From the NCBI RefSeq assembly GCF_003334785.1, contig NZ_QOWV01000007.1: a stretch of 64,000 bases of DNA. The stretch is one strand, 5' to 3'. The notes beneath the pieces were generated by a model. That model had not been told where the DNA came from. It searched no databases and saw only the letters and a program-made list of their open reading frames with translations. This DNA comes from Escherichia coli (GTDB lineage Bacteria; Pseudomonadota; Gammaproteobacteria; Enterobacterales; Enterobacteriaceae). Of this stretch, positions 3,013-49,058 are shown one piece after another. Position 1 is the first letter of the stretch. Each line of letters begins with the position of its first letter. A program made the translations under genes and the position numbers.

Positions 3013-3828
3013 ATGGCGTTCAAATTCAAAACCTTTGCGGCAGTGGGAGCCCTGATCGGATCACTGGCACTGGTAGGCTGCGGTCAGGATGAAAAAGATC
3101 CAAACCACATTAAAGTCGGCGTGATTGTTGGTGCCGAACAGCAGGTTGCAGAAGTCGCGCAGAAAGTTGCGAAAGACAAATATGGCCTGGACGTTGAGCT
3201 GGTAACCTTCAACGACTATGTTCTGCCAAACGAAGCATTGAGCAAAGGCGATATCGACGCCAACGCCTTCCAGCATAAACCGTACCTTGATCAGCAACTG
3301 AAAGATCGTGGCTACAAACTGGTCGCAGTAGGCAACACTTTTGTTTATCCGATTGCTGGTTACTCCAAGAAAATCAAATCACTGGATGAACTGCAGGATG
3401 GTTCGCAGGTTGCCGTGCCAAACGACCCAACTAACCTTGGTCGTTCACTGCTGCTGCTGCAAAAAGTGGGCTTGATCAAACTGAAAGATGGCGTTGGCCT
3501 GCTGCCGACCGTTCTTGATGTTGTTGAGAACCCCAAAAATCTGAAAATTGTTGAACTGGAAGCACCGCAACTGCCGCGTTCTCTGGACGACGCGCAAATC
3601 GCTCTGGCAGTTATCAATACCACCTATGCCAGCCAGATTGGCCTGACTCCGGCGAAAGACGGTATCTTTGTTGAAGATAAAGAGTCCCCGTACGTAAACC
3701 TGATCGTGACGCGTGAAGATAACAAAGACGCCGAGAACGTGAAGAAATTCGTCCAGGCTTATCAGTCTGACGAAGTTTACGAAGCAGCAAACAAAGTGTT
3801 TAACGGCGGAGCTGTTAAAGGCTGGTAA
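3013..3828 (+). CDS. metQ: Methionine-binding lipoprotein (ABC substrate-binding)
   Basis: 271-aa ORF with signal peptide and lipobox LVGC; NlpA-type binding protein. Confidence 0.95.
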   Translation: MAFKFKTFAAVGALIGSLALVGCGQDEKDPNHIKVGVIVGAEQQVAEVAQKVAKDKYGLDVELVTFNDYVLPNEALSKGDIDANAFQHKPYLDQQLKDRGYKLVAVGNTFVYPIAGYSKKIKSLDELQDGSQVAVPNDPTNLGRSLLLLQKVGLIKLKDGVGLLPTVLDVVENPKNLKIVELEAPQLPRSLDDAQIALAVINTTYASQIGLTPAKDGIFVEDKESPYVNLIVTREDNKDAENVKKFVQAYQSDEVYEAANKVFNGGAVKGW

Positions 3829-44787: not shown

Positions 44788-45486
44788 ATGAAAATCGGCA
44801 TCATTGGTGCAATGGAAGAAGAAGTTACGCTGCTGCGTGACAAAATCGAAAACCGTCAAACTATCAGTCTCGGCGGTTGCGAAATCTATACCGGCCAACT
44901 GAATGGAACCGAGGTTGCGCTTCTGAAATCGGGCATCGGTAAAGTCGCTGCGGCGCTGGGTGCCACTTTGCTGTTGGAACACTGCAAGCCAGATGTGATT
45001 ATTAACACCGGTTCTGCCGGTGGCCTGGCACCAACGTTGAAAGTGGGCGATATCGTTGTCTCGGACGAAGCACGTTATCACGACGCGGATGTCACGGCAT
45101 TTGGTTATGAATACGGTCAGTTACCAGGCTGTCCGGCAGGCTTTAAAGCTGACGATAAACTGATCGCTGCCGCTGAGGCCTGCATTGCCGAACTGAATCT
45201 TAACGCTGTACGTGGCCTGATTGTTAGCGGCGACGCTTTCATCAACGGTTCTGTTGGTCTGGCGAAAATCCGCCACAACTTCCCACAGGCCATTGCTGTA
45301 GAGATGGAAGCGACGGCAATCGCCCATGTCTGCCACAATTTCAACGTCCCGTTTGTTGTCGTACGCGCCATCTCCGACGTGGCCGATCAACAGTCTCATC
45401 TTAGCTTCGATGAGTTCCTGGCTGTTGCCGCTAAACAGTCCAGCCTGATGGTTGAGTCACTGGTGCAGAAACTTGCACATGGCTAA
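44788..45486 (+). CDS. mtnN: 5'-methylthioadenosine/S-adenosylhomocysteine nucleosidase
   Basis: 232-aa ORF starting [13 protein letters not shown]. Confidence 0.96.
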
Positions 45487-46279
45487 GTCACTGTTCAGGG
45501 CGCTGGTCGCCCTGTCTTTTCTTGCGCCACTGTGGCTCAACGCCGCGCCGCGCGTCATCACGCTTTCTCCCGCCAACACTGAACTTGCCTTTGCCGCCGG
45601 GATCACGCCGGTTGGGGTCAGCAGCTATTCCGACTATCCTCCACAAGCGCAAAAGATTGAGCAGGTTTCCACCTGGCAGGGGATGAATCTGGAACGCATT
45701 GTCGCGCTGAAACCCGATCTGGTGATTGCCTGGCGTGGAGGTAATGCCGAGCGGCAGGTTGACCAGCTGGCTTCGCTGGGAATAAAAGTGATGTGGGTCG
45801 ATGCGACAAGCATTGAACAAATTGCCAATGCGTTACGTCAACTGGCCCCCTGGAGTCCGCAACCAGACAAGGCCGAACAAGCCGCGCAATCCCTGCTGGA
45901 TCAGTACGCGCAATTGAAAGCGCAATATGCTGATAAACCTAAAAAACGTGTTTTTCTGCAATTCGGCATTAATCCGCCATTTACCAGTGGAAAAGAGTCG
46001 ATTCAGAACCAGGTACTCGAAGTTTGTGGCGGAGAAAACATCTTTAAAGACAGCCGGGTTCCCTGGCCGCAAGTTAGCCGCGAACAGGTGTTAGCACGCT
46101 CGCCACAGGCGATTGTCATTACAGGCGGACCGGACCAAATTCCTAAAATCAAACAATACTGGGGTGAACAGCTCAAAATTCCCGTTATTCCTCTCACGAG
46201 TGACTGGTTTGAACGTGCAAGCCCACGTATTATCCTCGCTGCACAACAGCTCTGTAATGCGCTTTCACAGGTAGATTAG
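45479..46279 (+). CDS. btuF: Vitamin B12 periplasmic binding protein
   Basis: 266 aa from [23 protein letters not shown] (signal peptide); 8-bp overlap with mtnN; ORF-track entry extended 9 codons upstream. Confidence 0.93.
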
Positions 46280-46316
46280 CGCCTGACCTTTTCAGGTGCT
46301 CAGTGGGGATTGAACA

Positions 46317-46940
46317 ATGCTCGTCTATTGGCTGGATATAGTCGGCACAGCGGTATTTGCCATCTCCGGCGTTTTGTTAGCCGGAAAATTGCGTATGGAC
46401 CCTTTTGGTGTTCTGGTACTGGGCGTGGTAACCGCAGTAGGCGGCGGGACAATTCGCGACATGGCGCTGGATCACGGCCCGGTATTTTGGGTGAAAGATC
46501 CCACCGATCTGGTCGTTGCAATGGTCACCAGCATGCTGACCATCGTGCTGGTGCGCCAGCCAAGACGCTTACCAAAATGGATGTTGCCGGTGCTGGACGC
46601 CGTTGGTCTGGCGGTGTTTGTCGGCATTGGCGTGAATAAAGCCTTTAATGCGGAAGCCGGTCCGTTAATCGCGGTTTGTATGGGCGTCATTACTGGCGTT
46701 GGCGGCGGGATCATTCGTGATGTTCTGGCCCGCGAAATCCCCATGATTTTACGTACAGAAATCTACGCAACTGCCTGTATTATCGGCGGTATTGTCCACG
46801 CTACGGCTTATTACACATTTTCCGTACCACTGGAAACAGCCAGTATGATGGGCATGGTCGTGACGCTATTGATTCGGCTGGCGGCTATTCGTTGGCATCT
46901 TAAGCTACCGACGTTTGCGCTGGATGAGAATGGGCGTTGA
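46317..46940 (+). CDS. yadS: UPF0126 inner-membrane protein with internal duplication
   Basis: 207-aa hydrophobic ORF with two copies of a GGG[TI]IRD motif (VTAVGGGTIRDM and ITGVGGGIIRDV). Confidence 0.9.
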   Translation: MLVYWLDIVGTAVFAISGVLLAGKLRMDPFGVLVLGVVTAVGGGTIRDMALDHGPVFWVKDPTDLVVAMVTSMLTIVLVRQPRRLPKWMLPVLDAVGLAVFVGIGVNKAFNAEAGPLIAVCMGVITGVGGGIIRDVLAREIPMILRTEIYATACIIGGIVHATAYYTFSVPLETASMMGMVVTLLIRLAAIRWHLKLPTFALDENGR

Positions 46941-46946
46941 AGAGAG

Positions 46947-46975
46947 AAGATGTGCCGGATAGTTTATCCGGCACA
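46947..46975. terminator. Perfect palindrome between convergent yadS and erpA (bidirectional terminator candidate)
   Basis: ATGTGCCGGATA gtt TATCCGGCACAT. Confidence 0.5.
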
Positions 46976-46986
46976 TGAACAACAGA

Positions 46987-47331
46987 TTAGATACTAAAGG
47001 AAGAACCGCAACCGCAGGTGCTTTTCGCGTTCGGGTTGGTCACGATGAAACGAGAACCTTCCAGACCTTCGGTATAATCAACGGAACCGCCGACCAGATA
47101 TTGCAGGCTCATCGGATCAACCACCAGGCCAACGCCCTGTTTTTCGATGGTCATATCGCCTTCGTTCACCTGATCATCAAAGGTGAAACCATACTGGAAG
47201 CCGCTGCAACCGCCACCGGTGATATACACGCGTAATTTCAGATTCGGGTTATCTTCGTCAGCGATCAGGCTTTTAACTTTGTTGGCTGCTGCGTCGGTAA
47301 ACTCCAGCGGCAGTGCTACGTCATCACTCAT
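46987..47331 (-). CDS. erpA: A-type iron-sulfur cluster carrier ErpA
   Basis: 114 aa from [11 protein letters not shown]; C-terminal CGCGSSF motif; ORF-track entry extended 11 codons upstream. Confidence 0.94.
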
Positions 47332-47412
47332 ATTTTGCTCCAAACGACATCGGCAATTGGGCAAATTCTAACCCAATAATAATCGCCATTATCTAATACC
47401 CTGGTATTTCGT

Positions 47413-48852
<1,440 letters not shown>

Positions 48853-49058
48853 TCATACAAATAAGATGACGGCATTTTACTCGCACGTTCCATGAAAATC
48901 CTTTGCAAAGCGTAATGTTTCAAATGCACAAAACTTTTATACTCTAAGAAATCAGGATTGCACCAGTACAAGCAGCCTGATGTTTGACGAGTATTTAACT
49001 TGTTATGAATAACATAGAATAGCAGCCATTCACTTTTTCTACGAATCAGGAACCCTCC

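Follow-up and report, generated by a model that had tools for sequence, protein, structure and literature searches.

YadS of Escherichia coli, a TRIC-family inner-membrane protein, and the glycine riboswitches at loci of its relatives

Introduction

Prokaryotic members of the TRIC family have been solved from Colwellia psychrerythraea (CpTRIC, 5WUF), Cereibacter/Rhodobacter sphaeroides (RsTRIC, 5H36) and Sulfolobus (SaTRIC and SsTRIC; 5WUC-E, 5H35 and 5WTR). Crystallography of the homologues shows trimers (Su et al., 2017, PMC5477506; Kasuya et al., 2016), and these papers describe an inverted repeat, glycine motifs and one pore per protomer. In the available sections of Su et al. (2017, PMC5477506), the CpTRIC results are structural and the functional recordings are those of SaTRIC, which shows 159 pS in bilayers with a preference for K+ over Na+. 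K+ currents were recorded from RsTRIC in spheroplasts, and the protein rescues a K+ auxotroph; its glycine-kink mutants are inactive. The eukaryotic proteins TRIC-A and TRIC-B (TMEM38A/B; 5EGI, 6IYX and others), which reside in the ER/SR, are also trimers with one pore per protomer (PMC5477506; PMC5401562), and are longer than the prokaryotic proteins of ~210 residues and less glycine-rich (PMC5477506). Structures of Caenorhabditis elegans TRIC-B bind PIP2, whereas preparations of SsTRIC and EcTRIC carry a neutral lipid instead (PMC5401562).

EcTRIC is the name that Su et al. (2017, PMC5477506) gave to YadS of Escherichia coli, the seed of their structural-genomics target family, and the protein has been purified (Ou et al., 2017, PMC5401562). 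Its internal duplication, its glycine motifs and its relationship to TRIC have all been published, as has the name EcTRIC, and none of this is new. A direct assay or electrophysiology of YadS was not found in the literature.

In an RB-TnSeq preprint, UPF0126 genes were specifically required for glycine utilisation in five bacteria; the final paper, as relayed by a review, extends this to 11 bacteria. The glycine-utilisation genes include Shewanella SO1319, annotated yadS, together with Sama_2463, Psest_1636, AO353_13110 and PGA1_c00920. Their products share the two-domain PF03458 architecture with YadS; these genes have a glycine phenotype by RB-TnSeq, whereas none is known for yadS, and they may be orthologous to YadS or to YicG. 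The same authors saw no phenotype for yicG of E. coli, and their preprint does not mention yadS. Because transposon fitness data tie the family to glycine utilisation, Pfam calls PF03458 "Gly_transporter". Glycine is also a toxin of peptidoglycan synthesis, according to background cited in PMC6944388. The public record is in conflict, with NCBI presenting a cation channel on the basis of electrophysiology and Pfam a glycine transporter on the basis of fitness data. Knowing the cargo would put right how a very large family is annotated (7806 PF03458 representatives at 50% identity), and two y-genes of E. coli would gain a function.

Results

Locus and conservation of yadS

The window analysed is the whole 64-kb stretch of E. 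coli DNA, and the features discussed below are collected in Table 1. The YadS protein of the window is 100% identical to that of K-12. The surrounding 2.1-kb stretch (45400-47500) likewise shows 100% identity to K-12 MG1655, and of the 5426 complete E. coli genomes searched, 5425 contain a match to it. The median dN/dS of yadS, calculated against E. coli for 80 Enterobacteriaceae species, was 0.045; the 80 loci are species representatives, and the single-protein scan of genome contigs gave solely Enterobacteriaceae orthologues. The gene belongs to the core genome and is subject to strong purifying selection.

YadS scored 438 bits with the NCBIfam equivalog NF007874, for which the cut-off is 326, and its RefSeq product name is "TRIC cation channel family protein". 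The curated K-12 record for b0157 reads just "PF03458 family protein YadS", and a 2025 study puts yadS among the uncharacterised y-ome genes, in agreement with the first-pass annotation, which described the E. coli substrate as not established. From the literature, no E. coli phenotype is known for yadS.

Table 1. Positions of yadS, its parts and neighbours in the window, and of the glycine-riboswitch strings in loci of TRIC relatives
Feature	Sequence	Position	Strand	Description
mtnN and btuF	Window	44788..46279	+	8-nt overlap with each other; upstream of and co-directional with yadS (annotation)
btuF-yadS spacer	Window	46280..46316	+	37 nt; Shine-Dalgarno-like GGGGA at 46305-46309; ACA at 46314-46316 abuts ATG
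yadS (b0157) CDS	Window	46317..46940	+	ATG start, 207 aa + stop; TRIC-family inner-membrane protein (EcTRIC)
Repeat 1 (residues 1-87)	Window	46317..46577	+	TM1-TM3; PF03458 match 4-78, E 1.5e-24
Motif 1 VTAVGGGTIRDM (residues 38-49)	Window	46428..46463	+	In TM2
Repeat 2 (residues 88-176)	Window	46578..46844	+	TM4-TM6; PF03458 match 92-163, E 1.4e-21
Motif 2 ITGVGGGIIRDV (residues 125-136)	Window	46689..46724	+	In TM5; second glycine kink
TM7 (residues 172-193) and cytoplasmic tail	Window	46845..46937	+	AlphaFold2 helix; outside duplication
Perfect 12-bp hairpin (ATGTGCCGGATA...TATCCGGCACAT)	Window	46950..46976	.	Between convergent yadS and erpA
Riboswitch/peptidoglycan-enzyme/TRIC string	L090	3897-5639		Rhizobium sp. 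WL3: riboswitch, L,D-transpeptidase, TRIC
Riboswitch/peptidoglycan-enzyme/TRIC string	L089	327-5621		Microvirga sp. VF16: riboswitch, PBP1A, PBP2, TRIC
Riboswitch-YkuD-TRIC string	L111	46-1741		
Riboswitch-YkuD-TRIC string	L112	4892-6711		
Riboswitch-YkuD-TRIC string	L113	4890-6642		
Riboswitch-YkuD-TRIC string	L114	4880-6624		
Riboswitch-YkuD-TRIC string	L117	4621-6645		

Internal duplication and twin motifs

The first-pass annotation had described YadS as a UPF0126 protein made of two homologous halves, each with a glycine-rich motif at the equivalent position. Pfam PF03458 matched YadS twice, confirming the family membership, and the GGG-x-I-R-D cores do lie at equivalent positions of the two repeats (residues 42-48 and 129-135). 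Translation of the 64-kb window in six frames yielded the pattern GGG.[ILV]RD only twice, in each case from the yadS ORF.

The twin motifs could be ascribed to chance, to the compositional similarity of hydrophobic, glycine-rich helices, or to a gene in decay, and BLASTP of the two halves alone was indeed marginal (E = 0.076; 21/43 residues identical). However, the Smith-Waterman score of the halves was 89 compared with 30.3 ± 5.5 for 5000 shuffles (z = 10.7; Gumbel P ~6e-7), and none of the 5000 reached it; local-composition shuffles did not reach it either and gave P ~6e-6. Furthermore, one family profile was derived for residues 1-87 and another for residues 88-176, each from 103 diverse homologues; hhalign aligned the two over 79 columns spanning all three helices, with a probability of 98.4% and E = 6.5e-15. 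Self-alignment thus reveals significant similarity between the halves. Decay is contradicted by the dN/dS, by the presence of the region in all but one of the complete E. coli genomes and by the number of family representatives. Chance, composition and decay are thus refuted as explanations, and the probability left to them is negligible.

The notion of two halves needs one correction. The duplication comprises TM1-TM3 and TM4-TM6, and helix 7 lies outside it, so that YadS has 3 + 3 + 1 helices and not two exact halves. Because there are three helices per repeat, the two repeats have opposite orientations in the membrane.

Among the 103 homologues, G43, G44 and R47 of motif 1 were invariant and G42, T45 and D48 were at least 90% conserved. 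In motif 2, G130, R134 and D135 were invariant and G131 was at least 90% conserved, and the G129 column was variable (A41/F19/G16 of 103). Motif 1 aligned with GGG48-50 of SaTRIC, and motif 2 with GGG134-136 and R139-D140 of SaTRIC. As judged from the alignment, motif 1 is the counterpart of the glycine kink lining the centre of the pore in the solved homologues.

Fold, topology and pore residues

An AlphaFold2 model of YadS based on the 103-sequence alignment (pLDDT 96.6, pTM 0.91) consisted of seven long helices, at residues 2-24, 29-51 and 63-80 in repeat 1, at residues 89-111, 116-137 and 151-166 in repeat 2, and at the position of TM7 given in Table 1. In the C-terminal part, R187 was invariant and P198 was at least 90% conserved among the 103 homologues. 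Lysine and arginine residues number 11 on the C-terminal side of the membrane and one on the N-terminal side, and the N-terminus is therefore placed outside and the C-terminus inside, in agreement with the topology cited in PMC5477506, including that from GFP fusions. YadS is thus established as a seven-helix inner-membrane protein with two inverted three-helix repeats and a seventh helix. A linked-trimer model with 25-residue linkers and a 10-sequence alignment reached a best pTM of 0.77 with pLDDT 76, and three of five models were poor (pLDDT 52-56); this score, which is global only, hints at a compact YadS trimer.

A PDB sequence search with YadS retrieved 5wuf (CpTRIC, 2.8e-54), 5h36 (RsTRIC, 9e-40), 5wuc (SaTRIC, 2.5e-31) and 5h35 (SsTRIC, 3.4e-29), and nothing significant besides these four solved prokaryotic TRICs (five distinct chain sequences). 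Foldseek comparison of the model with 5wuf, 5h36, 5wud, 5wtr and 5h35 gave TM-scores of 0.85-0.90 and rmsd values of 1.4-2.0 A. It is virtually certain that YadS has the identity and fold of the TRIC family. The earlier wording that UPF0126 resembles trimeric intracellular cation channels was right but understated, as YadS is a published member of the family. With the eukaryotic TRICs, YadS shares the 3 + 3 + 1 fold and the kinked TM2 and TM5; in contrast, identity to TRIC-A and TRIC-B was 14-21%, TM-scores were 0.60-0.62, and the PDB sequence search returned no eukaryotic TRIC chain even at E <= 1. YadS is not a member of the eukaryotic TRIC-A/B (TMEM38) subfamily.

In alignments with the solved homologues, YadS keeps both their pore-lining and their pore-locking residues. 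The pore Phe pair in TM1 and TM4 (F14 and F101) aligned with F20 and F106 of SaTRIC, the glycine kinks are G42-G44 in TM2 and G129-G131 in TM5, and the lock in the C-terminal bundle (D94, R134, D135 and Y150) aligned with D99, R139, D140 and Y155 of SaTRIC. R139 of YadS is the one notable difference, since SaTRIC has there N144, the ion site on the threefold axis, the mutation of which raises open probability. This column was variable among the 103 homologues (N35, G26, A13 and R12).

CpTRIC was the closest of the solved relatives, with 51% identity over the full length, seven helices, a TM-score of 0.88 (rmsd 1.8 A) and the same glycine motifs, VTAVGGGTIRD being identical; at the threefold-axis ion site it has Asn where YadS has Arg139. 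RsTRIC was ~40% identical (TM-score 0.87) and has the pore Phe pair and the glycine kinks, whereas its TM5 reads F-G-G instead of G-G-G, Gly occupies the position of residue 139, and its gene, unlike yadS, is plasmid-borne and adjoins an Lrp/AsnC regulator. The archaeal SaTRIC and SsTRIC were 31-36% identical to YadS, with TM-scores of 0.85-0.90, and SaTRIC has I-S-N in repeat 1 where YadS has I-R-D.

YicG (b3646), the sole E. coli paralogue of YadS, was 42% identical over 151 aa (E 7e-38), has two PF03458 repeats and gave the same PDB matches. It differs from YadS in having F-G-G in TM5 and Glu in place of the TM1 pore Phe14; it clusters with a protein from Pseudomonas (56% identity) instead of with YadS, and its locus is dinD-yicG-ligB. 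In both YicG (L083 3875-4492) and the P. aeruginosa protein (L092 5001-5621), Glu occupies the position that is Phe in YadS and in all solved TRICs. The P. aeruginosa gene follows ychJ, with one small ORF in between.

Neighbours and transcript of yadS

In the annotation, erpA and clcA are on the opposite strand and converge on yadS from downstream. The order mtnN+ btuF+ yadS+ erpA- was conserved in 80/80 Enterobacteriaceae species loci, clcA- followed erpA in 76 of them, and the btuF-yadS spacers were short across the 80 species, mostly <45 nt. No sigma-70-like site was found on the + strand just upstream of yadS, and mtn-btuF-yadS is given as a transcription unit in a TraDIS paper (PMC11731830). 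The perfect hairpin between yadS and erpA has a T-rich tail on the erpA (-) strand only, with no obvious T-run for yadS, and is probably a terminator.

The conserved order would suit a YadS that acts as a facilitator or exporter of another small metabolite, for example one linked to the methyl cycle or B12, as its partners are mtnN and btuF. Metabolite efflux was proposed for prokaryotic TRICs by an earlier bioinformatic study (cited in PMC5401562), and the gene contexts of distant homologues are heterogeneous. However, the synteny was seen only in the sampled Enterobacteriaceae, and the one non-enterobacterial relative examined at a comparable level of similarity (57% identity) has different neighbours; moreover, no specific candidate emerges and there is no experimental hint, making such a cargo improbable.

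A Poly-seq study includes yadS among the polysome-associated mRNAs that are processed by MazF, and places the cleavage at an ACA located 3 nt from the start (PMC5001579). MazF cleavage at the ACA that abuts the yadS start codon in the window would leave the mRNA leaderless. Two very small proteins are annotated on the - strand carrying erpA and clcA (window 47300-48900), on the basis of the K-12 annotation only: YadW (21 aa) overlaps the erpA start, and YadX (15 aa) lies upstream of clcA.

Glycine riboswitches at loci of TRIC relatives

Homologues were sought in plasmid records, and their loci were scanned with Rfam. Glycine riboswitches (RF00504, 53-71 bits) headed co-directional strings of peptidoglycan-enzyme genes ending in a TRIC gene in 7/7 such loci, which are related and not independent samples, five of the seven having been retrieved as relatives of the first. 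The seven loci are of the Hyphomicrobiales type. In Rhizobium sp. WL3 (L090), the L,D-transpeptidase and TRIC genes overlap by 4 nt, and in Microvirga sp. VF16 (L089), a sarcosine oxidase gene adjoins the string. RF00504 occurs in tandem in at least L112.

Of eight further TRIC proteins retrieved as relatives of that from Rhizobium, five have a gene for a YkuD-type L,D-transpeptidase directly upstream, and a riboswitch was present in 5/5 of these and in 0/3 of the relatives lacking ykuD. None of 17 further plasmid-borne homologue loci contained a glycine riboswitch, and the association is therefore clade-specific and not family-wide. The loci of the distant representatives P0126, P0129, P0131 and P0133 were on short contigs or uninformative. 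A hairpin followed by T7 was found just before ykuD in L090 and L111, and no common expression platform, from which on/off logic could be read, was found across the loci.

The Cereibacter plasmid copy (L088) is RsTRIC (E = 2.6e-127). The riboswitch-linked proteins were 55-66% identical to RsTRIC and only 38-47% identical to YadS; the clade in which K+ was recorded is therefore under glycine control. The riboswitch-headed strings of peptidoglycan-enzyme and TRIC genes are new here, no paper on a glycine riboswitch with TRIC or transpeptidase having been found in the literature, and they provide independent regulatory evidence for glycine in the same clade as the K+-recorded protein. yadS itself, unlike the close relatives of RsTRIC, has no riboswitch: no Rfam match was found in the window between 44000 and 49000, nor at the yicG locus (L083). 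None of the neighbours of yadS (mtnN, btuF and erpA) is related to glycine.

In three of the riboswitch-linked loci, a conserved ORF of 99 aa with no Pfam match lies after the TRIC gene and in its orientation (L112 6730-7029, L113 6765-7064 and L114 6704-7003).

Discussion

Considering these results, we propose the following explanation for YadS. By analogy with homologues of 36-51% identity, YadS would assemble into a homotrimer in which each protomer has an hourglass pore of its own, and would work passively as a gated pore instead of as an energised pump; that YadS is a passive pore is, on the same analogy, very probable. In vivo, the pore may allow the small zwitterion glycine to reach equilibrium between the two sides of the inner membrane, so that it would be taken up at high external concentrations and released when the cell contains too much of it. 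The pore would also be permeable to K+, as measured in vitro for homologues. A passive pore would reconcile the uptake phenotypes, in which glycine is a nutrient, with a release role under glycine excess. Taken as a whole, with glycine as the physiological cargo and K+ as a leak, this is the best explanation, although we hold it tentatively, at slightly less than an even chance. Against glycine as the cargo, the biochemistry of the family consists of cation conductance only, and yadS has no riboswitch, no glycine-related neighbour and no known E. coli phenotype.

Alternatively, YadS may be a dedicated inner-membrane channel for monovalent cations, K+ in particular, serving K+ uptake or charge balancing, with the glycine phenotypes belonging to other subfamilies or being indirect. 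This would accord with the RefSeq product name, with the conservation in YadS of all pore and gating residues of the characterised homologues, and with the K+ selectivity of SaTRIC in bilayers and the K+ currents and K+-auxotroph rescue reported for RsTRIC and SsTRIC. However, the K+-requiring E. coli host of the rescue experiments did not grow with the empty vector. We infer that this host retains chromosomal yadS and yicG, so that their native levels supply no K+. Furthermore, a consistent K+-related gene context was seen in none of the loci examined, the clade of RsTRIC itself is under glycine-riboswitch control, and the glycine-specific fitness defects in 5-11 bacteria would be left unexplained. 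A dedicated K+ channel is thus unlikely.

The explanation with glycine as cargo may extend beyond E. coli. Co-regulation of cross-linking enzymes with a TRIC pore fits a glycine-stress response, and it is possible, if doubtful, that the prokaryotic TRICs, including YadS, are equilibrative glycine pores of such a response and not physiological K+ channels. In the Hyphomicrobiales, a glycine riboswitch would then co-induce the L,D-transpeptidase or PBP1A and PBP2 together with the TRIC pore against poisoning of the cell wall by glycine. The K+ conductance of RsTRIC and SaTRIC would be a side permeability, and YadS and YicG would constitute the CycA-independent route for glycine in E. coli.

Other plasmid-borne loci show further gene contexts. 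Genes for an M20 metallopeptidase lie directly upstream of TRIC in Mesorhizobium and Paraburkholderia plasmids (L098 2510-4660 and L099 2727-4636); in L099, the M20 peptidase and TRIC genes overlap by 4 nt, and genes for an M24 peptidase, a creatininase and a cytosine permease lie downstream. The M20 metallopeptidase could represent a second context able to release glycine, and, like the sarcosine oxidase of L089, the M20 peptidase with creatininase of L098/L099 fits glycine metabolism. On a Paracoccus plasmid (L097), a cobalamin riboswitch (3379-3576, - strand) lies ~420 nt upstream of the TRIC gene on the opposite strand; its resemblance to the position of yadS after btuF, which encodes a B12-binding protein, may be a coincidence.
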